DNA of 64,000 nucleotides, taken from an uncultured Gammaproteobacteria bacterium (GTDB lineage: Bacteria > Patescibacteriota > Patescibacteriia > Magasanikbacterales > GWA2-37-8). This document shows, in pieces, positions 16,088-63,989 of the stretch. The notes below the pieces were generated by a model that did not search any database, was not told where the DNA came from, and saw nothing but the letters and a program-made list of their open reading frames with translations. Position numbers and translations under genes: made by a program. The first letter of the stretch is position 1; every line of letters starts with the position of its first letter. Location of the stretch: positions 1,901 to 65,900 of the forward strand of contig CAZBWU010000003.1 in assembly GCA_964496095.1 (NCBI GenBank). Direction: 5' to 3'.

Positions 16088-17848
16088 TTAAGCAATAAAC
16101 CCGCCTGCCTGCACTTCCCAGAGTTTTTTATACAAGCCTTTTTCTTGCTGTAATAATTCTTGATGGGATCCGTTCTCTACAATCTTACCCTCTTTAATCA
16201 CGATAATTCTATCCATTTTCATAATCGTAGATAAACGATGAGCCACCACAATCACAGTCTTGCCTTTTATAAGGACATCCAGGGCTTTTTGAATCAATTG
16301 TTCAGATTCAGAATCAAGACTAGAAGTCGCTTCATCTAGAATAAGTATTGGTGCGTTGTGCAGAATCGCCCTAGCTATAGCTACGCGCTGACGTTCACCA
16401 CCGGATAATTTTACCCCTCTTTCACCTACAAAAGTATTATACCCTTCTGGCAAGTCTTTGATAAATTCGTGACAGTGAGCCAGTTTGGCAGCTTTAATAA
16501 CTTCTTCTTCGGTGGCGTCTGGTTTGCCATAGCGAATATTTTCTAGCAAGCTTCTGTGGAAAAGAATTGGATCTTGCGGAACCATGCTAACATTTTTCCA
16601 TAAACTTTCCATTTTGACATGGCTGATATTTTGCCCATCAATCACAATACTTCCTGCGCTTACATCGTACATGCGCAAAAGCAATTTAATGATTGTGGTT
16701 TTACCTCCTCCAGATGGACCGACTAAAGCCACCTTTTCTTTGGCAGAAATACTAAGGTTGAATTTTTCTAGAATAGGACGAGTTTTATGGTAGAAGAAAT
16801 CAACTTTGTTGAATTCAATTTTACCTTCGGTAATTTTTAAGTCTTTGGCATTTTTAGTGTCTACTATGCTGTGCGGTTCACTTAAAACAGCGCTCATCTC
16901 ATCCGCTTCAGCCAGGCTTTCATATATATCTCGAATTACGCGACCAAAATCCCATGTTCTCATAATAACAATCAATATGTATGACTGTATGAGAATAAAA
17001 TCACCAATTGTTAAAATATTTTGTTTCCATAATAAAATAGCAATATAAAAAATTCCGACTTCTAAAACTGTAGTGAGTAAAGCTTGAGTTGCCTCATAAA
17101 CATTGCTCAGATTCCAGGTAAATAAGCGTAGTTTTTTTACGGTACCAATCGCTTTGGCAAAGTTTTTTACTTCAGCCATATAGCCGCCAAACAATTTAAC
17201 GTTGGTATTATTTGTTATTGTATCTGCTAGAATTCCAGTCGCGGAAGAATCTGCTTCGCTTCGCGCGAGATCGTATTTGAGCTTAAATTTTGTAAACAAT
17301 ATATTTATAATAAAAAAGATGGTAATCCAAACGCCGATTGCGATAGCAAGATAAGCATTCTTTCTAATTAAAACAAAGATTATTAAACTTATATTTATTA
17401 ATAATTGTAAAATATCAAAAGATAACTTATCTGTAATATGTTCGAATGACCTGGTAAAACGATTTACTTTTTTTACAAGTGACCCAACAAAATTATCATT
17501 AAAATAAGCAAAAGAATGCTTGTGAATGTATCTAAAACAAAAATCAGACAAATTTACCATTACGGAAACTTGAAAATAAGAGATAAAAAAAGTGCTGATA
17601 CGCCAAAACATCCAGCCGATAAATTCTATAACCGCAATAATAAACAGGTTGTGAATCAGCTGAGGTGCCAAAATTTCTTTTGGCTGTGATTGGGCCAAAA
17701 GGTCAAAGATTTTTTTAAAATACAAGGGGGTTATAACAGTTACAGCCGAAGCTAAGATAACAGCAAAAAACACAACCAGCGCTGAAATTTTGTGTTGCTT
17801 TATCTGGTCCCAATATATTTCAATTGTTTTCTTTGTATTTACTTGCAT
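16088..17848 (-). CDS. ABC transporter, fused permease/ATP-binding (MsbA-like exporter)
   Basis: Six-TM N-terminal domain, Walker A GPSGGGKTT, signature LSGGERQRVAIARA, Walker B ILILDEATS. Confidence 0.85.
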   Translation of the reverse strand: MQVNTKKTIEIYWDQIKQHKISALVVFFAVILASAVTVITPLYFKKIFDLLAQSQPKEILAPQLIHNLFIIAVIEFIGWMFWRISTFFISYFQVSVMVNLSDFCFRYIHKHSFAYFNDNFVGSLVKKVNRFTRSFEHITDKLSFDILQLLINISLIIFVLIRKNAYLAIAIGVWITIFFIINILFTKFKLKYDLARSEADSSATGILADTITNNTNVKLFGGYMAEVKNFAKAIGTVKKLRLFTWNLSNVYEATQALLTTVLEVGIFYIAILLWKQNILTIGDFILIQSYILIVIMRTWDFGRVIRDIYESLAEADEMSAVLSEPHSIVDTKNAKDLKITEGKIEFNKVDFFYHKTRPILEKFNLSISAKEKVALVGPSGGGKTTIIKLLLRMYDVSAGSIVIDGQNISHVKMESLWKNVSMVPQDPILFHRSLLENIRYGKPDATEEEVIKAAKLAHCHEFIKDLPEGYNTFVGERGVKLSGGERQRVAIARAILHNAPILILDEATSSLDSESEQLIQKALDVLIKGKTVIVVAHRLSTIMKMDRIIVIKEGKIVENGSHQELLQQEKGLYKKLWEVQAGGFIA

Positions 17849-17864
17849 AATTTTTATAAAACAG

Positions 17865-17900
17865 CATTATCTCCCCTGTTTGGGGAGATATGTGTATATT
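17865..17900 (-). terminator. probable atp-operon terminator hairpin
   Basis: Stem tatctcccc / ggggagata (17878-17900) followed on the minus strand by a T-rich run. Confidence 0.4.
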
Positions 17901-17965
17901 ATAGAAGACGTAAAAACTGAGGTTTTGTTACCGTGAAGGCTAATCTTAGAGAAAAATTGAAGTTT

Positions 17966-18103
17966 TTAGGCGTTTACCTTATCAATACATTCACAACCGC
18001 AAGTCTGATCACATTCACAACAAGCCACACATATACTTTCATTACACAAGCAAGGATCTGCTTGCTCTCCTAAAACTGTTTTGCATTTTGGGCATTTTTC
18101 CAT
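17966..18103 (-). CDS. unannotated small Cys-rich protein (45 aa, 11 Cys)
   Basis: ATG at 18103 and TAA at 17966-17968. Translation: MEKCPKCKTVLGEQADPCLCNESICVACCECDQTCGCECIDKVNA. It lies 29 nt downstream of atpC and is below the ORF-track length cutoff. Confidence 0.35.
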   Translation of the reverse strand: MEKCPKCKTVLGEQADPCLCNESICVACCECDQTCGCECIDKVNA

Positions 18104-18132
18104 ATGAATGTTTGATTATTAATTTAAAGTTT

Positions 18133-18558
18133 TTATTTACTTGCTGGTAAATTCCTGTATTTTTTTGCTACTCTCAATCTATTGAGCTCTCTGTCTATAA
18201 CTGCTTGCAACTTGGCAAAGTCGACGTCTTGAACGTTCTTAATATTCTTCATTTGTTCTTGAGCGCGTACTCTGGCTTCTTCGGCTCTGGTAATATCTAT
18301 CTGGTCTACTCGTTCAGCGTGATCGGCTAAAATCACAATTTCATTTTTTCCTCTTACTTCCAAAAATCCTCCCGAAACTGCCATCTGATGTTCGCCATCC
18401 TTGTCTTTGAATTTTAATTCACCGGCTTTAAGAACAGAGACAAGCGGAATATGATTTGGTAAAACTGTAATTTCACCGTCCATAGTCGGAATGGTAATTT
18501 GAAAAATTTCATTTTCATAGATACTTTTTTCCGGAGTGACGATTTTGAATTTTAACAT
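18133..18558 (-). CDS. atpC: F-type ATP synthase subunit epsilon
   Basis: 141 aa, MLKFKIVTPEK...ITVLPNHIP beta-sandwich plus C-terminal helices. Last gene of the atp operon. Confidence 0.85.
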   Translation of the reverse strand: MLKFKIVTPEKSIYENEIFQITIPTMDGEITVLPNHIPLVSVLKAGELKFKDKDGEHQMAVSGGFLEVRGKNEIVILADHAERVDQIDITRAEEARVRAQEQMKNIKNVQDVDFAKLQAVIDRELNRLRVAKKYRNLPASK

Positions 18559-52800: not shown

Positions 52801-53220
52801 AATCCGCCAGAGGCGGATTGTTAGCCAGATGGATTCAAACTTCACCACTTTCAGTGGTTCTTTTTCATCTCATCGCTAACAACAAAAAAACCATCCAGAG
52901 AGAGTCACCTAAATAACTAATCGAAATTATTTATTCAGGCGATCGGATGGTGATTTTGCAAGACAGATAAATCTGTCTATTTTTATTTACTAACTTGTTT
53001 GCCCACTCCTTATTAAGGAGGGGGGGAGGTCTTATCTATAACCCCTCCTGCGCCTCCCCTTCTTAAAGGGAGGACAACTAGTAAATACAAATAGCTAGAT
53101 TTGAATTGTAGATTTGAAAGAGCGGTAAAGCCGAGGAGGAAGCGCGTAGGGTGACCAGGCTAACGCGTGTCGCGCAGCCCGGCAATAGCCAGGCGACATC
53201 CTCCTGTTTGGGAGTGGCGG

Positions 53221-54000
53221 TTAGCCGCCCCCGACCTTCACGACCACACTGGCCCGGTAGGGCCCGCACGCGATCGTGTAGGTGTAGGTGCCGGGGTTAC
53301 CATTCCCGGCCAGAAATATACTGCTACGGCCGGTGCCTGGCCGATCGATGGCGGGCCAATCACCATCGCCACTGGAGTCGCAGGCTGCTGCCAATGACTC
53401 CCAGTCGAGGTAAATTCTGTCGCCAGCCGCGACAGAATACCACCCACCGGTGTTCCAGGTGGCGGGCGTGGGCACGCCGGCGATGTTGACAAGGACATCA
53501 AAGCGCATCGCGTAGGCCACCAGGGCCTTCGCGTCGCTCATGTCCTCATCCTCGCACACCAGACCGTAGATCGTCTCGCCGAATGGCAGGACGACCTCAG
53601 TCTGCCCAGTCGTCGGCGGCAGGTCCTGGGCCACCCAGTCCCCGCTAACCTGCGCCACGCCGTTGATGGCGGTCGCCCGTTCGCAGGTAGTGGACGAGAT
53701 GGCACTTACCACCTCGTAGCCGAGGACCACCGGCTCCCCAACACGGAGGTTCCGCACCTCCTGCGGGGCCGCCAGCTCCGCGGCCGTGAGGCTCACGGAG
53801 AGAACAGGCCTCGGCGGCAGCGGCAGGCCGATCTCCTGGTTGCCCAGGAACCCCACTGCGGCCGCCGGCGGCTTGCCCGGAGGCTGGTCATCGCCACCCC
53901 CGCCAGCGGGGGTGAAGCCGCACCCCTCGAGAAGGAGTGCGAGCGCGAAGACGAGCGCGCAGAGCGCGCACACCAAGAGGCATTTACGGATGTCCCACAT
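53221..54000 (-). CDS. GC-rich island gene 4: secreted lipoprotein
   Basis: MWDIRKCLLVCALCALVFALALLLEGCG has a lipobox, and AGGGGG lies 8 nt upstream. GC content ~68%. Confidence 0.55.
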   Translation of the reverse strand: MWDIRKCLLVCALCALVFALALLLEGCGFTPAGGGGDDQPPGKPPAAAVGFLGNQEIGLPLPPRPVLSVSLTAAELAAPQEVRNLRVGEPVVLGYEVVSAISSTTCERATAINGVAQVSGDWVAQDLPPTTGQTEVVLPFGETIYGLVCEDEDMSDAKALVAYAMRFDVLVNIAGVPTPATWNTGGWYSVAAGDRIYLDWESLAAACDSSGDGDWPAIDRPGTGRSSIFLAGNGNPGTYTYTIACGPYRASVVVKVGGG

Positions 54001-54457
54001 GATGGACACCCCCTTTCCGGCCCAAGCGGGCCATTACCCAACGGGCCCAGAAAATGTCAAAGTACCGAACGACACAGCATGTGTCGCCCTTCATTGAGTT
54101 TAGAAAATCAATTCTAAACTCTAGAAGAACAACATTTTTTTAAAATGCTATACATTTAGTATAGCATTTTAGTTTTTTTCTGACTATTTATAATCTTTTA
54201 GAACCTATCATTCCCCTACCTAGTAGGAAAATAAATTAGTTTTAAACTTTAAACCTTGCTTCCGACGAGGTGTGTGTTACCACAACACCTCGTCGTCCTC
54301 ACCTAGACCTGGCCGTGGCGCTCGAAACTCGAGCGGCCAGATTGGCCATGCGATGGTCCAGAGTGAGATTTTGGGCAGCTTGTTAAAGCCACCACTTCCC
54401 TGGGGGTAAAACCCCTCCTCCGATTAGGGCAGGTCGGATGAGGCTCGAGGCGCGCTA

Positions 54458-55129
54458 CTACGGCAGGGTGTGCCGGTTGCGCCCGTCGATGTTGCAGCCG
54501 AAGCCACCCTCCCCACCGGCCAGCCAGTAGGCCGGTTGGGTCGCCGGCTGGCCCGGCCACGACAGGTTGCAGGTGCAGCCCTGCGGGAGGTGGGCCAGCC
54601 ACCACGCCGGACCCTTGGTGAAGTCCTCCCAGCGGAGGACCCACAGGATCGTGACCGACGTGGCCGTCGTCGGCGCGACGCGGTTGCCGCTGCCGTTGGC
54701 CGCGAGGGGCACCGGGTCGCCGACCGGCGTGGCCGCCGGGGCGGCGTACCACTGGACGCCCGTGGTGATCCGCTCGAGATCCGTGCTGGCCGCGCACGTG
54801 ATCGACCAGGGCTGGCCGGTCGGGCTGCAGACGTTCGGGCTGGCCGTGTTGCAGGACCAGCCGGTCTCGACCGTGCAGGTCGAGCTGCAGCCGTCGCCGT
54901 TGGCGAGGTTGCCCTGGTCGCACTGCTCGGCGCCGGCCTTGATGCCGTCGCCGCAGATGGCGGCGGACGGGGCGTCCGGGGGCGTCACCGCACCGTCGAT
55001 CGGGGGCGGGTTGGCGGCGTCGACCTCGTCACCGCCGGAGGGGTTCTCGCCCTCCATGGTGCAACCGACGCCGATGACCGCCGTGATGCCGATGATGGAC
55101 GCGCACAGGAACTTGCTGAACTTGAACAT
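54458..55129 (-). CDS. GC-rich island gene 1: secreted Cys-rich protein with Myxococcales-type Cys repeat
   Basis: GGAGG SD 5 nt upstream, signal peptide MFKFSKFLCASIIGITAVIGVGC, and the repeat ICGDGIKAGAEQCDQGNLANGDGCSSTC. Confidence 0.6.
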   Translation of the reverse strand: MFKFSKFLCASIIGITAVIGVGCTMEGENPSGGDEVDAANPPPIDGAVTPPDAPSAAICGDGIKAGAEQCDQGNLANGDGCSSTCTVETGWSCNTASPNVCSPTGQPWSITCAASTDLERITTGVQWYAAPAATPVGDPVPLAANGSGNRVAPTTATSVTILWVLRWEDFTKGPAWWLAHLPQGCTCNLSWPGQPATQPAYWLAGGEGGFGCNIDGRNRHTLP

Positions 55130-55626
55130 GAGAACCTCCGCTTGAGAATGCGTCCACCGCCGGAATGGCGACAGACATTGGGAAACGTTGGGTGCCGAAC
55201 AACTTGGTTTGATTCCTTGCATCTCCAATACGATAGGAGATGAGGATTCTTACCTTGTTCTCGACATTTCAATATCCCTTATTAAATAAAGAATGGTTTT
55301 AATTCTTTGCTTAATGCGGGATATTGATCCGGGTGGTTCTTCTTTTTTGATTGGTTTGATTTGTAAAGAGCTGATTTCCATCTCTATCATTCCCCTATCA
55401 TATAAGGAAATGATTCGATGTGGCCAGGTGCGTGAGCAGAGCTGGCCGTCGATCCGAACGAGGGCCTCCTAGATCCTCGTCGGGGTGATGGCGACTGCAG
55501 TGGCTCCGGATGGAGCCAACGAACAGCACGCACAGGATGTGCAGGTTGACGACGCGGGCGACGCGCGTCGTCGCTCCGACCGGTTGCACTTCCGGTCGGA
55601 GGGGGGTGGGGTCAGAGCGCGACGCG
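55130..55626. repeat. island upstream module copy A (leader + promoter + terminator block)
   Basis: 55257-55626 is ~100% identical (one 1-nt indel) to 56586-56962. 55111-55270 is identical to 57496-57670 apart from 1 nt. Confidence 0.9.
55214..55246 (-). promoter_or_regulatory. conserved 5'-leader hairpin (catctcc...ggagatg) ~85 nt upstream of the start codon
   Basis: Retained in all three leader copies (55214-55246, 56553-56585, 57609-57641) even in the diverged copy B. Confidence 0.5.
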
Positions 55627-56460
55627 GACACCGCCGAAGCCGGCACCGACGATGCTCTTGTCGAGCGGCGCCATCTCCGGCGCGTCGTAGGTCTGCCGGA
55701 GCACGTCGCCCCGCAGGAACACCTCGACACCGAGCTTCTTCGACTCGACCTGGTAGACCGCCTCGAAGGCCGCGCCGTAGAAGCGGAGGGTCGGGGTGTC
55801 CAGCATGTTCCCGAGGTGGATGCGCTGGGTGATCGTGGCGCCGCCGGCGAGCATGATGTGCTCGCTGACGTAACCGTGGATCATCGCATCCGCCCCGTAC
55901 ATGCCCTTCCCCTCGTCGCCGGCGGCGCCACCCTCGTTGATGCCGAGGCGGCCGGTCAGCCGCATCCGACCGTCGAGGAAGGTACCGGAGAAACCGACGA
56001 AGCCGACCGGTCCGGCCTCGCCCATGTACCCGCCCAGGAGCCCGATGTGCAACCGGCCGGGCTTCGTCTGCCGGGTGGCGAGGCGCGCGAGCGCCTCGGC
56101 CTGCGCCTTCTGCGCGGCCGCCAGCTCGTCGAGACGGGCCTTGTCGGCCTGCTGGGCCGCGAGCGCGTCGGCCTGCTGCTTGGCGAGCTCGTCGAGCCGC
56201 TTCTGCTGGTCGCTGCCCTCCATCTCGATGCCCTCGTCGCCGGGGGCCGTGGTGAAGTGGGTGCACGCACCCACTTCGACTTCGACGGTCTTGGTGACGA
56301 GCGGGCCGCCCTCGATGGTCTTCATGCCGTCGGGGCAGGGCTGCGTCGTGACGATGACCTTGTGGTTGTCATCCTCCGCCGCCGCCGGCTTGACGCCGAT
56401 GACGGTGAGGCTGGCGACCGCGACGATGGACGCGCACAGGAACTTGCTGAACTTGAACAT
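55612..56460 (-). CDS. GC-rich island gene 2: secreted protein with coiled-coil and beta-rich C-terminal domain
   Basis: GAGGAG SD, signal peptide MFKFSKFLCASIVAVASLTVIGV...AAA, an Ala/Gln-rich coiled coil, and an alternating-hydrophobic C-terminal half. Confidence 0.55.
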   Translation of the reverse strand: MFKFSKFLCASIVAVASLTVIGVKPAAAEDDNHKVIVTTQPCPDGMKTIEGGPLVTKTVEVEVGACTHFTTAPGDEGIEMEGSDQQKRLDELAKQQADALAAQQADKARLDELAAAQKAQAEALARLATRQTKPGRLHIGLLGGYMGEAGPVGFVGFSGTFLDGRMRLTGRLGINEGGAAGDEGKGMYGADAMIHGYVSEHIMLAGGATITQRIHLGNMLDTPTLRFYGAAFEAVYQVESKKLGVEVFLRGDVLRQTYDAPEMAPLDKSIVGAGFGGVRVAL

Positions 56461-56962
56461 GACGTAGCTCCTCATGAGAGAGTGGTGCGTCCATCGCCGG
56501 AATGGCGGACGGACATTGGGAACCATTCGGGTATCGAACAACTCAGTTTGATTCCTTGCATCTCCACTACGATAGGAGATGAGGAGTCATTCTTTGTTCT
56601 CGACATTTTCAATATCCCTTATTAAATAAAGAATGGTTTTAATTCTTTGCTTAATGCGGGATATTGATCCGGGTGGTTCTTCTTTTTTGATTGGTTTGAT
56701 TTGTAAAGAGCTGATTTCCATCTCTATCATTCCCCTATCATATAAGGAAATGATTCGATGTGGCCAGGTGCGTGAGCAGAGCTGGCCGTCGATCCGAACG
56801 AGGGCCTCCTAGATCCTCGTCGGGGTGATGGCGACTGCAGTGGCTCCGGATGGAGCCAACGAACAGCACGCACAGGATGTGCAGGTTGACGACGCGGGCG
56901 ACGCGCGTCGTCGCTCCGACCGGTTGCACTTCCGGTCGGAGGGGGGTGGGGTCAGAGCGCGA
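56461..56962. repeat. island upstream module copy B
   Basis: See copy A. The leader part (56461-56588) has diverged by ~20%, while the 370-bp promoter/terminator block is identical. Confidence 0.9.
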
Positions 56963-56963
56963 C

Positions 56964-57524
56964 CTACTTGGTGATCGAGACGACGGTCGCCGCCTTGCTG
57001 CCGAGGTTGCGGGCACGCCGCAGGTTGTTGAACTGCGCCTGGAGGCGCAACATGTCCGCCGCGAAGCGGCGGATGAACCACCCCTGCATGTGATCGCGGT
57101 TCTGGGCGTGCTTGGCCATGGCGACGGGGTCCGGCGTCGCGCAGTCCGCGCTGCAGCCGTCGCCGTCCTGCGTCACGCAGACCGCGTCGTCGCCGGGGCA
57201 CTCGCTGTCCCGGGTGCAGAACGCACCCTTCTGGGGTCCGCTGTCGCAGTGACGACCGTTGTCGCACGCCTCGCCGTCCTCGACGACGTCGTTGCCGCAG
57301 ACGGCGTCCCACGACATGTTGATGGTGGCGGTGACCCAGCTGCAGTCCGCGCTGCAGCTATCGCCGTCGACCTTGTTGCCGTCGTCGCACATCTCGTCGC
57401 CGGCGGCGGTGCCGTCGCCGCAGACGACGGGCGGATCCTCCGCCGACGCCGACTTGACGCCGACGGTGGCGACCACGAGCCCGAGGATGATGGACGCGAA
57501 CGTGAGCTTGCTGAACTTGCACAT
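56964..57524 (-). CDS. GC-rich island gene 3: secreted Cys-rich protein with Myxococcales-type Cys repeats
   Basis: GGAGG SD, signal peptide MCKFSKLTFASIILGLVVATVGV, and repeats VCGDGTAAGDEMCDDGNKVDGDSCSADC and VCGNDVVEDGEACDNGRHC. Confidence 0.6.
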   Translation of the reverse strand: MCKFSKLTFASIILGLVVATVGVKSASAEDPPVVCGDGTAAGDEMCDDGNKVDGDSCSADCSWVTATINMSWDAVCGNDVVEDGEACDNGRHCDSGPQKGAFCTRDSECPGDDAVCVTQDGDGCSADCATPDPVAMAKHAQNRDHMQGWFIRRFAADMLRLQAQFNNLRRARNLGSKAATVVSITK

Positions 57525-57740
57525 GAGAACCTCCGCTTGAGAATGCGTCCACCGCCGGAATGGCGACAGACATTGGGAAACGTTGGGTGCCGAACAACTT
57601 GGTTTGATTCCTTGCATCTCCAATACGATAGGAGATGAGGATTCTTACCTTGTTCTCGACATTTCAATATCCCTTATTAAATAAAGAATGGTTTTAATTC
57701 TTTGCTTAATGCGGGATATTGATCCGGGTGGTTTCGCTGT
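57525..57740. repeat. island upstream module copy C (leader identical to A; promoter part truncated/diverged beyond 57740)
   Basis: Matches the A leader and the first ~85 nt of the AT-rich promoter block. Confidence 0.85.
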
Positions 57741-58102
57741 TTGGTTTGGTTGGGTTGTATGGTTTCACATACAAACTCATTCGCTCGACAATACTTTGCT
57801 TGCAAAGTATTGTTCTCGCTCATTTCGATTGTAAAGAGCTTATGCCTACTATTCTTGTTTGAACTACCAATTGCATATATAACTCAATTGATAATTCCAT
57901 TTAAAAACAGTAAAACCTCTACTTTGTGAGAGAGGCTACATATATAGACTATTTACCTGCTTTGTTGATGGCCTAGACAATACTCTCTCACGATATTGCG
58001 TTGGCCGTTAAAAAATCAACAATAGAATACTATACCACAAACTGGAGATATTGTCAAGAGTTCAATGAAAGTATAGCGGAATAATCTGTATTTTTTGGCT
58101 AA

Positions 58103-58160: not shown

Positions 58161-61100
58161 CTATCTTCCGCCAAGTATTTGTTGAGCAATCTTTTCACGC
58201 TGGCCAGCTTGACCATTAATCATAGCTATTGCTTCATTGTGCGTATATCTAATTACTTCACCTGTTTTAGAATTATTTTCAATAAGTTCGTCCTTATCGA
58301 CTGTAAATGTGCTACCCTCAGAAATAAACAAACGCTCGTTACCATTATCCATTAATCGAAATCCATTACTGCCGTTAGCCAACATGTCGGCCTTACTATC
58401 ATTAGACTCCTTGATTAAATCTATGATAGACATTTTAATTCCTCCAAATTTATCAGATGCTCCCCCTTTATAGGTGGCAATTGCCTTTTGTATATAATTA
58501 TAATTTTGTCGATCGGTAGCATCTAGGGCGGTACCGGCAACAATCTTATTTTCTATGCTTTCCATTGGACCTACCAAATGAGACGTCACCATATCTTCTA
58601 ATACCCTAATACTTCCTGGATCTACCTGAAAAAAATGACTCTCAGCGACCAAAGAAACATCCTTTAAAATTGTTTCTAAATCGTTTCCAATTTTTGGAAG
58701 CTCCTCTACAATTTCTACTATTTTTATTTCTTGTTCATGAGGTGTTGTATCAGGTGTGACTACTGCTGACTTCGCACCAGCTCCTGTATCAGGAGTAGTT
58801 CCACCACCCGAGGTCTGTTTATCAAAATCAACTCCAAAATCTTTAGCAATACCCTTAGCAAACTCTCCTGCTTGTGTGCCAGCCTTACCAAGACTATCAG
58901 CGGTATTCTTGACGGCATTCGTTAATGCCTGTTTATCTTGTTCTGTAGGCGGCACAGCTGCCATGGTTTCGCCAGCGTTTCCACTGCTCGTAGGCAAAGC
59001 TTCTACTACCTGACCACTTGGCCTAAATGTTTCTAGGGTTTTAACCTTAATTGTCCTTTGTTCGCCAAGCAAGCCCTCTCCAATAGGCACTGGATGACGG
59101 TGACCTTTGGAATCAAGCACGCCCTGAGCTCGGTTTAACACCTCAACATGCTCGGCTCCGGCTTGAGCAAATTTTATTTTATCGCCTTCTATCTCTGCCA
59201 ACACGGCTCGCTCATCAGCAGTCATCTCGGATGCCGGAACATTATTTTCGGTGTGTTCTCTATATGGATGATCACCTTGCATCTCATTTATTTTGCTGGC
59301 ATTATTCCACATTTGTTTATCAGGATTTTTATCAATAGCTATCTTGCGTCCACCCACAACTCGCATTTGATCCTTGGTAACATAGCCATCTTTACCCTCT
59401 ACAGCACTAAGAATTGGCTTACCTTTTTCATCTACACCAAAACTATAGATATGCCCATGAATATGAAGATCTACCCCCTTACCAGTAAGTCTGGCGTTGG
59501 CAAAATCTTGATTTTCTTCTCCTTGCATAGATCTCCACAACCCCTCTACCATCTTATGATCGGAACCATCTGTCTCTTTATATTTTGCTGCAAACGCTTT
59601 CCAATCAACTTTAGCGCTGGTCTTACCTTTACCTACCCAATCTTCAATGTATTTGAGTTGCGGACGACTAAATTTGAGGCTCTCTAAATATTTTGCCGCT
59701 CTTTCCGGACCGCCTTTGTCTAAAATTTCTTCAAAAATTACTTGCTGGCGTTCGGCTCCCACTTCTACCTCGGTATTTATTTCATATTTAATAAAACCGT
59801 GATGAGAATGCACACCGCTTCCACCTTCACTAGCTGACAATATACGTTGCAAAGATTCCGAATTGTTCAATTCTGGGAAACCTTTTTCACCGGTGACTAA
59901 TTTTTCTAAATGGGGATAAAAATCTTTATCTAATTTATTGTCGACGCCAAATTCTCGCACCGCTGATCCTGGTGTACGAACTTCAGCTATAGGTTGATCT
60001 GCTTCGACCGCAGTTCCTGGTTTATGCGAATCTCCTCCTGGTTGAGGCGCTGCTGGAATTGGAACTGGTATTGGTTCCGGGTGCGCTTGAGCAACCGCAT
60101 CATTCATCGCTCTTTTTAATATACCGTGGTCTGTTTGGCCCCCACCAGTTATCTTATCTTTTATGCTTTCAAGAGTTTCAATCGGATTAGCCACTGCATG
60201 TACGACACGCCCATAACTTTCCAAAGCCCGGCTAGCATTATGGATAGGTTCCTCCCAAATTTTTAAAACTTGACCGCTTTCAACACGATCAATAATCGCA
60301 TCTATTTGCTCTCCAGGTGAAGCGTGTGATGAAAGAAGGGAGCCGTAGATACCAACCGCGCGAGCGATAGTGCCCAAGGCTTTGACAAAATCCATAGCCT
60401 TACCAGTTCCACTCGTACCTTTCTTTGCTCCTTGCCCAGCCAAAGAACGCACTGTTTCCCAAGCAGCCCTTACCGTTACATCTTTGGCCACAAAACCAAA
60501 CTCCGATTCACCGTTAATGCTACCAGCATTCTTATACGTGTGTTCTCTACGTGCTTTTTGGACTCTTTCTGCTACAGAACCAACCGCATAGCCAATACCA
60601 CGCGCAAACAAACCGCCGCCAAGTGTCAGGAGCGTGTTGAGGCCATCTTTGGCAATTTGCGCCCCAGAAACTTTGGCGTGAATATACGATTCTAATAGAC
60701 GCCTGACTTCCGCATCTCTCTCTTCTCTGGCTTCATCCGTGTCTTCTTGGTGTTTGATCGAAATTGCCCATATTCTTTCTGTGATCTGCTGTTTAGCTTC
60801 TGGGCTAATTTTTTTGGTATCATTAATTATTGATTTTAAATCTTCCAAACGAACTCCCACTCCTTCATCCAAAGCCGAGGGCTCTCCTTTTTTTGTTCTT
60901 TCTGAAGATTGGAGTAATTTTTGATATGCATCAAAAATTGATTCCACAAATACCTTAGATTCTTTAGTGCCTTTTCTCCACTCGGCTATATCTCCCTTAC
61001 CAAAAGCTGCAAGGCCTAAATCAGTGATAGTCTTTATACCTAAGACTGAAGTTATTGTATTATAAGCAACTTTTCTGGAAAATTTACGTGTTTCTTTATC

Positions 61101-63989
61101 TTTAAAGGCATCCTTAAAACGCTCCCACCGACTCTTGTCTGGTGGAGGAGGAACTACTGTATCGGCTGGTTTTTTCTTGCCAAAACCTAACAATCCACCA
61201 ATGCGGGATATGATGCCTTTTTTTTCTGGAACAGCAACTATAGAGCCGTCTAAGAATTCAGATTCTGGGGACAATCCTTGTAATGCATCTTGAAATTGTT
61301 GATAGACATCTTTATTTGGATCATTTTTTACTAATTCTATAAATTCTGCAAGTTTAATTTTTACATTGTCTGTAGCAGCTAAGAATGCTTTAGACTCTTC
61401 TTCTGATGTGACTGGTAAATTACGTGCGTCATCAATAATACTAACTAGAGCGTCATAAGAGCCAAGATATTTATTTACTAGTTTAACATTCTTTTTATCC
61501 TTATATAAATTATTAAAAACTTCAGCTAATTTTGTAAGGTCTCTTTCATAGTTAATCAAACGTTCCTCTGCCATAGTTTCTGGTGAAGGTAAATCATTGA
61601 AATCTTCATACAAAGATGTGACACCACCTTCTATTTCCGTAATTAGAGGTTCCAACTCATTCTTACCATCAACTGCTTCGGCTGAAGTAATTTTAACTTC
61701 AATTTCATTAATTTTTTTTTCTATAGCTTCTGTACCAACTTTTTGGGGTAAATAATAATCTCTTAATCTTTGCAGATTTTTTTTAGTATTAGCAAGGGAT
61801 CTTGTTTGAATTTCCGTTTTTCGTTCTGGCAGAGCGCGGATATCTGCCGATAATTGACCAGAAAGAATTGTTTCTATCTGAGAAACCAAACCTTTCAATT
61901 TGCCATAATCTGTACACGTCTCTGCTTCTGTTATTTTACTCTCTAGATCTGCCATTGTAGCATCTATGGCCAGTGTCGAGATTCTTTTCTCTAATCGAGA
62001 CTCCAGGAGTGTAAAATAATTCTTATGACCAATCAAACTAGCTTCCAAATCCAAAGCTTCTATATCTTTTAATATCTCCTCAAGGAGATTATCTAATTCA
62101 GCATTTGGAGTTGAATTTATCAGTTCAATCTTATCATGAATAGGTGGCAACTTTGGTTCTAAGACAGTGAGCCTATTATCAGCGGCAAGACGGCTTCTTA
62201 AATCTCTAAATCTATTTGGAATGATTCTATCTATCCTAAATCTCTGCGCATCGGTAAGCAAAGACAGGTCAGGTCCAAGTGGCGGAAGGACATCCGTTCC
62301 AGCCCGAGGAAGTGGATCAAAATCCGGAAACTCTACATCTGGCTCTGATGAGCCAGCAGGTGGAAGCGCATTAAAATCTTCGTATAATTGCAAAATATCT
62401 CTATCTAGCACCAAAAGGAGAGGTTTTAATTCAGACTTATTAATAAAAGGTACTTTAGCCAAGGTCAAATTTGCCTCAATTTCATCAATTTGAGCTTTCA
62501 ATCTATCTGAATAGGCTTTTGTATGCAATCCATTTTTTACTATAGCTAAATTTTCTTTATACTCCCGTAATTTTTCTTCTTGCTCTGATGTCACAGATTC
62601 AACAGTATCCGAAGCACCAGTAGCTGCGTCAGGAGTTGGAACTGTTTTAGCAGGAAGCTTGCTTATATCTGCGCGCAGAGCATCAAGAATACCTTGTATG
62701 GTTTGAAGTATACCTTCCAAGGTGTTTTTATCGGTACATCTATTTGCCACTTCTAAATTCTTTTTCAACCGTATAAGCCCTGATTCAAGCCTAATCATCT
62801 CCTCATCTTCCCCATCTCTTTTATCTAGCATACCTCCGAGTAACACAAGCTGATCTCGACAATGTCGCAATTTTACTTTTTGCTGATCAGAAATAGGCTC
62901 GGTAGGTGGAGCTACATCCCCTTTAGCCGGAAGTGCCTCTATTTCCGCGACTAAATTACCAAGGCCTGTTTTTATACCATCAAGCGCAACAGCCATATCG
63001 GCACGCGTACGAATATGGCTCAATCTGGTATTCCCTATTTTGACATCAACTTCATCAAGCTTATCCTCCATACCTGGAGTACCTTGTTTTTGCATCAAAA
63101 GATCTTTTAACCTTTGAAGTTCCGTCCTATACCCTTGACGCACATTTATCTGTTCATTAGTAATAAACTCTTGAGAGGCCGGATTTCCAGCTACTCTACT
63201 CTCAAATTCCTGTTTTACTTGAGGCAGTAACTTATTTTCAATTTTCCCAAAATACTTGCCTACAGCTTCCATTTTTTTATCATAAACTTCAAGGTCATTT
63301 GTGCGCGCAGCCTGGTTTAAACATCTTTCTATATCAGTCACCCAGCCAGATATTTTGGATTTCTGTTTATCAGACATCATTTCATCACGAACCGTCACTA
63401 AAATACCTAGTTTACGCTCTGCTTTTTTTCGCTTTTCTATTCTATTCTCAGACTTCTCAGCATCGCTTTGACTTGGATTATCTGCACCATTCTCAGCCTT
63501 AGGTTCAGGCACTTTTTTCTTCGCCTTCAAAGCCTCCATTTCTGTATGAAATTGCTCCAATAAATCATCGACTTCTTTAGTTTTATTCTTGGAAAAATTC
63601 CATTTTTTATGATCAAACGCACTCTTCTCTGTTAAAAACGCCTTAATAAGTTCTTTTACCTTTTCTGTTAAACCAACCATCTCGGCACTATCTTTACCAA
63701 ATTTTTTTTCCATTTCTGCAATCTCTGGTCCAAGAGTTTTAAGATCTTCATCGTGTTTTTTTAATTTTTGACTATAGATTTTTTCTGGATCTAGCAATAC
63801 TTCTTTTTTAACGGCCAATGTTCGAAGTCCAACTTCAATATGTCCTAAAAGATTTTCAACAGTGGCCTTATTTTTACTAGCATAGTCAGACGACTTAAGG
63901 CTCTCTTCTAAACTCTTACATCGACGCAACAGTTCTTTTATCTTAGTTCTACTTTCAGGCAACGCGGCAGTCCCTGATAAATCTTCCAA
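58161..63989 (-). CDS. giant protein (>1,942 aa; N-terminus probably beyond the window end), largely alpha-helical/coiled-coil with a Gly/Thr-rich linker
   Basis: Single uninterrupted minus-strand frame with host-like AT-rich codon usage. The only large ORF on either strand here. I could assign no catalytic motif with confidence (GVDLHIHGHIYSFG and HSHHG noted). Confidence 0.7.
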   Translation of the reverse strand: MEDLSGTAALPESRTKIKELLRRCKSLEESLKSSDYASKNKATVENLLGHIEVGLRTLAVKKEVLLDPEKIYSQKLKKHDEDLKTLGPEIAEMEKKFGKDSAEMVGLTEKVKELIKAFLTEKSAFDHKKWNFSKNKTKEVDDLLEQFHTEMEALKAKKKVPEPKAENGADNPSQSDAEKSENRIEKRKKAERKLGILVTVRDEMMSDKQKSKISGWVTDIERCLNQAARTNDLEVYDKKMEAVGKYFGKIENKLLPQVKQEFESRVAGNPASQEFITNEQINVRQGYRTELQRLKDLLMQKQGTPGMEDKLDEVDVKIGNTRLSHIRTRADMAVALDGIKTGLGNLVAEIEALPAKGDVAPPTEPISDQQKVKLRHCRDQLVLLGGMLDKRDGEDEEMIRLESGLIRLKKNLEVANRCTDKNTLEGILQTIQGILDALRADISKLPAKTVPTPDAATGASDTVESVTSEQEEKLREYKENLAIVKNGLHTKAYSDRLKAQIDEIEANLTLAKVPFINKSELKPLLLVLDRDILQLYEDFNALPPAGSSEPDVEFPDFDPLPRAGTDVLPPLGPDLSLLTDAQRFRIDRIIPNRFRDLRSRLAADNRLTVLEPKLPPIHDKIELINSTPNAELDNLLEEILKDIEALDLEASLIGHKNYFTLLESRLEKRISTLAIDATMADLESKITEAETCTDYGKLKGLVSQIETILSGQLSADIRALPERKTEIQTRSLANTKKNLQRLRDYYLPQKVGTEAIEKKINEIEVKITSAEAVDGKNELEPLITEIEGGVTSLYEDFNDLPSPETMAEERLINYERDLTKLAEVFNNLYKDKKNVKLVNKYLGSYDALVSIIDDARNLPVTSEEESKAFLAATDNVKIKLAEFIELVKNDPNKDVYQQFQDALQGLSPESEFLDGSIVAVPEKKGIISRIGGLLGFGKKKPADTVVPPPPDKSRWERFKDAFKDKETRKFSRKVAYNTITSVLGIKTITDLGLAAFGKGDIAEWRKGTKESKVFVESIFDAYQKLLQSSERTKKGEPSALDEGVGVRLEDLKSIINDTKKISPEAKQQITERIWAISIKHQEDTDEAREERDAEVRRLLESYIHAKVSGAQIAKDGLNTLLTLGGGLFARGIGYAVGSVAERVQKARREHTYKNAGSINGESEFGFVAKDVTVRAAWETVRSLAGQGAKKGTSGTGKAMDFVKALGTIARAVGIYGSLLSSHASPGEQIDAIIDRVESGQVLKIWEEPIHNASRALESYGRVVHAVANPIETLESIKDKITGGGQTDHGILKRAMNDAVAQAHPEPIPVPIPAAPQPGGDSHKPGTAVEADQPIAEVRTPGSAVREFGVDNKLDKDFYPHLEKLVTGEKGFPELNNSESLQRILSASEGGSGVHSHHGFIKYEINTEVEVGAERQQVIFEEILDKGGPERAAKYLESLKFSRPQLKYIEDWVGKGKTSAKVDWKAFAAKYKETDGSDHKMVEGLWRSMQGEENQDFANARLTGKGVDLHIHGHIYSFGVDEKGKPILSAVEGKDGYVTKDQMRVVGGRKIAIDKNPDKQMWNNASKINEMQGDHPYREHTENNVPASEMTADERAVLAEIEGDKIKFAQAGAEHVEVLNRAQGVLDSKGHRHPVPIGEGLLGEQRTIKVKTLETFRPSGQVVEALPTSSGNAGETMAAVPPTEQDKQALTNAVKNTADSLGKAGTQAGEFAKGIAKDFGVDFDKQTSGGGTTPDTGAGAKSAVVTPDTTPHEQEIKIVEIVEELPKIGNDLETILKDVSLVAESHFFQVDPGSIRVLEDMVTSHLVGPMESIENKIVAGTALDATDRQNYNYIQKAIATYKGGASDKFGGIKMSIIDLIKESNDSKADMLANGSNGFRLMDNGNERLFISEGSTFTVDKDELIENNSKTGEVIRYTHNEAIAMINGQAGQREKIAQQILGGR

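Follow-up and report, generated by a model that had tools for sequence, protein, structure and literature searches.

The inverted repeat shared by the leaders of three secreted-protein genes is the tip of HP1, an imperfect hairpin of 74 nt with 26 pairs that appears when the leaders are folded in the sense (minus-strand) orientation. We propose tentatively, with a probability of about 0.4, that HP1 is a lineage-specific, cis-acting structural element of the mRNA leader which may affect stability or processing of the transcript; its closest functional analogues would be stem-loops known from the leaders of surface-protein genes. HP1 is outside all described families; leader stem-loops of such a kind are well known. 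We infer transcription of HP1, selection on it and its role. It would shield the 5' end of a primary or processed transcript from ribonucleases, and this protection would set the lifetime of the mRNA and its output.

HP1 and the leaders of genes A, B and C

Within the window, as we call the whole 64 kb stretch of DNA that was analysed, the perfect inverted repeat CATCTCC-N9-GGAGATG is found at three sites and none besides (0 expected from shuffles), and all three are situated upstream of the minus-strand genes A, B and C (Table 1), so that the relevant RNA is the reverse complement of the motif. This agrees, at 3/3 positions, with an earlier note on this DNA, which ascribed the hairpin to all three cassette genes. 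The 33-nt string is free of mismatches in copies A and C, and its one mismatch in copy B is a loop position (A to C on the + strand). The core RNA, UCCUCAUCUCC-UAUCGUAUU-GGAGAUG-CA-AGGA, folds with -13.1 kcal/mol (z -3.5), and the core stem of the 7-N9-7 repeat contains zero G-U pairs.

Folding of the leaders in silico confirmed the stem as an unusually stable structure: 0 shuffles fold as well as HP1 of copy A or copy B, the architecture of HP1 is the same in both, and the MFE and centroid folds of the leaders agree on one single architecture. HP1 folds about equally on both strands (sense -28.0 vs antisense -25.6 kcal/mol in copy A, sense -25.6 vs antisense -27.3 in copy B), so the strand test cannot separate a role in RNA from a role in DNA, and it leaves room for a protein-binding DNA site. 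According to that alternative, the 7-N9-7 repeat would be a double-stranded operator to which a putative dimeric regulator binds downstream of the promoter, co-regulating the three genes. The perfect 7-bp inverted repeat, its core without G-U pairs and the equal folding of both strands fit such a site, and palindromic operators seem to be in use in this island, given its perfect palindromes at 54135-54188 and 57755-57840, which overlap candidate -10 boxes and covary strictly by Watson-Crick pairing. However, the distance between the half-site centres, 16 bp or some 1.5 helical turns, would be atypical of a dimer, the 19 further imperfect, bulged pairs are not needed by a protein site, the motif is absent from related islands, and Pfam and NCBIfam scans of the submitted window ORFs of at least 150 aa revealed no regulator gene in or next to the island. 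We therefore regard an operator as very unlikely; the imperfect 26-pair complementarity with bulges, reaching far past the 7-N9-7 core, would be a better fit to a nucleic-acid hairpin than to a dimeric protein site.

Table 1. Features of the island and of the leaders upstream of its genes (positions in the window)
Feature	Position	Strand	Remarks
Gene A, secreted DUF4215 cysteine-rich-repeat protein	54458-55129	-	GC3 0.96
Gene B, orphan secreted protein	55612-56460	-	GC3 0.94
Gene C, secreted DUF4215 protein	56964-57524	-	GC3 0.96
Gene D, fourth secreted-protein gene of the island	53221-54000		GC3 0.81
Apical hairpin, copy A	55214-55246	-	7-bp perfect stem, 9-nt loop, 2-nt bulge, then 4 more pairs
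Apical hairpin, copy B	56553-56585	-	single loop difference vs A
Apical hairpin, copy C	57609-57641	-	identical to copy A
HP1, copy A	55193-55266	-	74 nt, 26 pairs, -28.0 kcal/mol, z -6.0
HP1, copy B	56532-56605	-	9 substitutions vs A; 25/26 pairs kept; 1 compensatory G-C to A-U; -25.6 kcal/mol, z -4.4
HP1, copy C	57588-57661	-	identical to copy A
HP0, AT-rich 57-nt hairpin directly upstream of HP1	55270-55326	-	z -4.5; identical copies at 56610-56666 and 57665-57721
HP2, GC-rich hairpin between HP1 and Shine-Dalgarno	55152-55176	-	GUCUGUCGCC-AUUCC-GGCGGUGGAC
HP2, copy B	56489-56514	-	two one-sided pair-keeping changes and an inserted 1-nt bulge
HP2, copy C	57547-57571	-	
Shine-Dalgarno GGAGG and ATG, gene A	55127-55141	-	equivalents at 56458-56473 (B) and 57522-57536 (C)
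AGCTCTTTACAA motif, candidate -35 TTTACA	55361-55372	-	upstream of A; also B 56701-56712, C 57829-57840, and L003 and L004 cassettes
Junction hairpin	55386-55414	-	pyrimidine-rich 5' arm, purine-rich 3' arm, two G-U pairs; second copy at 56726-56754

HP1 is the middle one of three hairpins in a region of about 200 nt upstream of A, B and C, where HP0 corresponds to what the earlier note called a 'promoter block'. These hairpins are parts of a repeat unit of 365-566 nt that starts at the stop codon of one gene and reaches about a dozen codons into the following gene. It consists of the 3' hairpins of the upstream gene (a GC-rich hairpin block of about 215 nt after the stop codon), an AT-rich promoter-like stretch, the three hairpins, the Shine-Dalgarno sequence and the opening codons of a signal peptide common to the three genes (A and B, MFKFSKFLCASI; C, MCKFSKLTFASI). 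In a promoter scan all the candidate promoters, weak and inconsistent as they are, lie upstream of HP1, and any of them would thus place HP1 in the transcript.

The junction hairpin folds well on the sense strand alone (-13.4 vs -5.3 kcal/mol); it is kept in three species (the window and the related genomes L003 and L004) with differing sequences, and its arms look like an anti-Shine-Dalgarno and Shine-Dalgarno pair. A separate observation concerns GAACCACC at 55329-55339, which is complementary to the Shine-Dalgarno region of gene A some 200 nt downstream (GGAGGUUC at 55133-55141); by this pairing the whole leader of gene A is predicted to fold up as a single multi-branch structure. The corresponding 5' segment of copy B is predicted to pair instead with UGGUUC, a site made by B-specific substitutions. 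The Shine-Dalgarno sequence is predicted to be paired both in A, masked by the distant GAACCACC, and in B, with the other partner, HP1 being uninvolved in both cases; its predicted accessibility varies with the 5' end assumed.

A switch of the ligand, temperature or attenuation type is improbable for HP1, and two mechanisms offered in the earlier note, attenuator and thermosensor, had to be dropped. A stable leader stem-loop is what HP1 has in common with intrinsic terminators and attenuators, but its stem is followed by AAUCAAACC or CCCAACG rather than by a U-tract, no terminator was called on either strand, and the small ORFs of the leaders, which are in different frames and of differing sequence in A and B, reveal no conserved peptide, and the folds no alternative pairing. 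An RNA thermometer of the ROSE or fourU type was rejected as HP1 does not contain the Shine-Dalgarno sequence (55135-55139): the hairpin ends from about 54 nt (extended, at 55193) to 75 nt (33-nt core) upstream of it.

Identity of the copies, pairing and selection

A stretch of 300 nt directly upstream of HP1 is 100% identical between A and B (55267-55566 equals 56607-56906), and they are identical again across the first 36 nt of the coding sequence. A and C share a 271-nt block of 95% identity, and their leaders are 100% identical throughout. The 300-nt and 271-nt blocks show that duplication or gene conversion is ongoing, and recent events of this sort account for most of the identity of the copies. 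Since A and C are identical, there are just two independent sequences, and A versus B is the sole informative comparison. The alignment of A and B from HP1 to the ATG has 148 columns and 26 differences (17.6%), which bears out the divergence of about 20% ascribed earlier to the leader of copy B, and in the 33-nt core the difference is 1/33, located in the loop. With differences placed at random, a 33-nt stretch with at most one of them has P = 0.15 and a 40-nt stretch P = 0.03; the local conservation of the core thus appears to be only marginally beyond chance.

Nine substitutions distinguish HP1 of copy B from that of A. Two of them together turn a G-C pair into A-U, two others alter one partner each with pairing retained through G-U, one adds a pair and one disrupts a pair; the remaining four lie where nothing is paired or in the loop. 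Of 5000 random mutants of A that matched B in number and type of changes, 2.1% kept at least 25/26 pairs and 5.1% folded as well as B. For the leaders of A, B and C together RNAalifold gave 36 pairs over HP1 and HP2, with 1 compensatory, 4 one-sided pair-keeping and 1 broken. The seven core pairs are invariant and therefore uninformative on selection either way. Covariation across the copies, which the earlier note had proposed as a check, is found in part: there is one compensatory pair and 25/26 pairs are kept, in what amounts, A being equal to C, to a single comparison. Selection on RNA structure, claimed from conservation of the core in the diverged copy, is marginal as far as the core goes (P 0.15 and 0.03); the nine B substitutions spare the hairpin more than random ones would. 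Template-switch correction of quasi-palindromes can yield paired changes without selection. The pair-keeping between A and B may be taken as suggestive of selection, not decisive, and the case for HP1 as a selected regulatory RNA is weak, with two distinct versions of it in existence.

A different origin of the same pattern has to be weighed here. HP1 may be a functionless palindrome that hitch-hikes in a repeat homogenised by duplication or gene conversion, its conservation in B being a conversion patch or chance; we rate this as a strong rival and the main one, somewhat less probable than a leader element. The diverged patch of B is bounded by segments of 100% identity, which makes short gene-conversion tracts a live alternative, and the 271-nt block shared by A and C (95-100%), the 300-nt and 36-nt identities of A and B, and the weak scan statistic all agree with it. 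Against hitch-hiking speaks the behaviour of the outer helices, which lie beyond the identical core and changed in B in a pair-preserving manner, with one double change, two of the G-U type and one new pair vs one break.

Searches for further copies, which the earlier note had proposed, did not enlarge the family in any of the collections searched. With the loop left free, CTCATCTCC-N9-GGAGATGCAAG had no match in 185,579 species genomes (one per species) and none in viral contigs, and in metagenomes it was found on two contigs alone, which are short, identical to the window, and carry base-for-base copies B and C. Apart from the window, a single contig carries gene C, and it is identical across the 123 nt of leader present on it. 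A covariance model comprising HP1 and HP2, run against 442 kb of related loci, hit nothing but the copies in the window and the antisense of two of them, the latter as expected for a palindrome; the same search found no HP1 counterpart in L003, L004 and 19 other related loci. None of the Rfam 15 families reached its gathering threshold, the best overlapping matches in a search to E 10 scoring 9.9-18.6 bits vs 50-120 (E at least 0.38). A profile of the three signal peptides gave no candidates, and an exact-sequence look-up of proteins A and Wzy no record; the inter-cassette unit upstream of A had no phage match, the region upstream of C no plasmid match, and the window no tRNA or tmRNA gene. 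HP1 thus appears to be a species-level, lineage-specific invention. Its absence outside the species is also what hitch-hiking would produce, the more so as conservation across species is limited to an 86-nt element and to the palindrome of gene D.

The GC-rich island and its counterparts

Genes A to D form an island of 4.7 kb with 55-64% GC in 1-kb windows, vs about 36% GC for the window as a whole. Their GC3 (0.94-0.96 in A to C, 0.81 in D) compares with 0.28-0.37 in the flanking genes, and the housekeeping genes of the window include mreBC, pbp2, mur ligases, ATP synthase and aminoacyl-tRNA synthetases. Paceibacterota and Taylorbacteria are among the Patescibacteria/CPR assemblies with the nearest MurC relatives; identity is 81% and 70% for the two closest, whose automatic label 'Gammaproteobacteria' we consider unreliable. 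Directly upstream of the island, at 58161-63989 (minus), lies an ORF of 1942 aa without a Pfam domain, whose start is at or beyond the end of the window. We found nothing relevant in the literature on GC-rich islands or variable surface-gene families in CPR.

The array is made of same-strand cassettes in which mature proteins are unrelated and flanks are common. Protein B has no homologue except itself and no Pfam match, its PDB sequence matches are insignificant, and the single-sequence AlphaFold model is too poor to use (pLDDT 42). A profile of A and C matched only generic DUF4215 repeat proteins from Myxococcota and some eukaryotes, mainly in the repeat region, the matches covering 13-56% of the query and most of them 15-30%. 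We also had the impression that protein B and two proteins of the related genomes (L003 10478-11308, L004 18640-19413) resemble outer-membrane beta-barrels, judging by the alternating pattern of their C-terminal halves and a terminal aromatic residue; beta-barrels would be odd in a CPR organism.

Islands at the same site, downstream of murC and wzy and on the same strand, are present in both close relatives, L003 and L004 (window 53000-57750, L003 7400-11902, L004 16300-21377). All three genomes are Patescibacteria-like with 36-41% GC, and GC3 is 0.90-0.96 in cassettes and 0.77-0.84 in D-type genes vs about 0.3 in host genes. The cassette proteins are mostly unrelated across the species (DUF4215, Ig/cadherin-like, orphans), and the parts follow a shared order: a GC-rich ORF with signal peptide, GC-rich 3' hairpins, the junction hairpin, AG(C/T)TCTTT(A/G)(C/A)AA, a long hairpin with further hairpins, GGAGG and ATG. 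Units are near-identical inside each genome and unalignable across genomes. L004 also carries, at 17491-18402, an AT-rich secreted-protein gene (GC3 0.26) within the GC-rich island, right after the GC-rich 3' block and junction hairpin, so that the unit can evidently drive genes of native composition too.

At positions equivalent to HP1 the hairpins of L003 and L004 are of unrelated sequence yet very stable, with z from -3.7 to -10.1. Between the two diverged L003 leaders, with 69 predicted pairs, 5 changes are compensatory and many are of the G-U type, and these leaders fold much better in sense than in antisense (-72.7 vs -54.6 kcal/mol). In the leaders of these genomes, then, hairpin structure appears to be kept up through a turnover of sequence, which lends indirect support to a role of HP1 and, together with the compensatory changes, would be hard to explain if the hairpins of the related genomes were neutral.

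The only upstream elements that are conserved between species are of another kind. The 86-nt element (57755-57840, minus) begins with AGCTCTTTACAA, contains two hairpins, is present upstream of C and precisely absent upstream of A and B, and had no Rfam match. It is 91% identical to L004 (20905-20999, 19655-19752) although the MurC proteins are just 70% identical, and 6/8 of the differences make up three compensated stem pairs, the other two being in the loop. Upstream of the D-type genes there is a promoter-like TAGTCA-N17-TGcTATACT (window 54135-54188, minus; L003 8504-8530; L004 about 17420-17470). A perfect 12-bp palindrome, AAAATGCTATAC-N5-GTATAGCATTTT, has the -10 box within its 5' arm; on the + strand it also scores as a terminator, and it may be an operator or a bidirectional terminator. 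Another promoter-like sequence, the near-consensus TTGACA-17-TATAGT with TG upstream of the -10, is located about 500 nt upstream of gene C and faces the array (58057-58029, minus). The next 180 nt (57845-58025, z -4.8) are unusually structured and may represent a small RNA or else the beginning of a single long transcript of the array.

Kept structure with lineage-specific sequence, in imperfect palindromes placed between same-strand cassettes, is reminiscent of integron attC sites. The inter-cassette hairpins could be integron-like folded single-strand sites of recombination or processing, or else intercistronic processing or stabiliser sites of one transcript from 58057-58029. In favour of this are the same-strand cassettes with unrelated mature proteins and shared flanks, the structure kept between species without sequence, as in attC sites, the near-consensus promoter upstream of the first cassette with its highly structured RNA, and the absence of the 86-nt element from A and B. 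Integron attC sites proper were nevertheless rejected. Pfam and NCBIfam scans of the submitted window ORFs of at least 150 aa and of the four cassette genes yielded housekeeping genes only and no integrase or other recombinase, pairs of RYYYAAC...GTTRRRY core sites numbered 0 on both strands of 53000-58000, and the units, with no phage or plasmid match, are much longer than attC and contain several hairpins and AT-rich promoter-like stretches. On this balance we hold recombination or intercistronic sites to be unlikely.

A wider reading, which we offer as a speculation of low probability, is that HP1 and its neighbours are parts of an undescribed CPR expression-and-exchange module at a fixed chromosomal site. 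Secreted-protein genes with the codon usage of an organism of roughly 70% GC would there receive a lineage-specific unit of terminator hairpins, AT-rich promoter, multi-hairpin leader and signal peptide. The donor would possibly be the host of the epibiont, DUF4215 pointing to Myxococcota, and the hairpins would serve both survival of the mRNA in an AT-rich host and recombination between cassettes.

HP1 among known systems

By itself HP1 is of modest interest: a leader stem-loop that is lineage-specific and absent from catalogues, and that would belong to a type by which mRNA stability is tuned. Its greater value is in marking the repeat unit around which a very unusual locus is organised. The island, being conserved and syntenic, with extreme GC3 and lineage-specific structured expression units, is more unusual than the hairpin, and its hosts are ultra-small, probably epibiotic bacteria with 36% GC genomes. 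Should these organisms use the unit to express and exchange surface or effector proteins, perhaps acquired from GC-rich hosts, it would be relevant to their interaction with a host and would provide a sequence handle for locating such islands in other genomes.

The arrangement of the array can be compared with vlp/vsp-type systems of Mycoplasma, in which a gene family encodes variable surface proteins behind a conserved 5' expression module. As there, the genes stand in tandem and have promoter region, leader and signal-peptide codons in common but unrelated mature parts, and the family evolves in concert inside a genome with rapid turnover between species. The differences are that no homopolymer tract or invertible promoter is seen here, nor an inverted-repeat pair of at least 20 nt flanking the promoter, and that our host is Patescibacteria-like, with GC3 of 0.90-0.96 in these genes vs about 0.3 for the host.

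For HP1 itself, which we tentatively regard as a structural leader element, the closest parallels are leader stem-loops in transcripts of abundant surface proteins. In E. coli the ompA transcript is stabilised by a stable stem-loop in its 5'-UTR. A stable 5'-UTR stem-loop likewise stabilises the transcript of the abundant surface protein SlpA of Lactobacillus (slpA; reviewed in PMC10221546). The slpA and ompA elements are cis-acting and ligand-free, lie upstream of an exposed Shine-Dalgarno sequence, and have as their defining position one within a few nt of the transcript 5' end. HP1 differs from them in being one of three hairpins of a repeat unit shared by paralogues, and in having no sequence or Rfam relationship to them; what it has in common with both is a long leader, a very stable stem-loop upstream of the Shine-Dalgarno sequence, and an association with genes for secreted or surface proteins.
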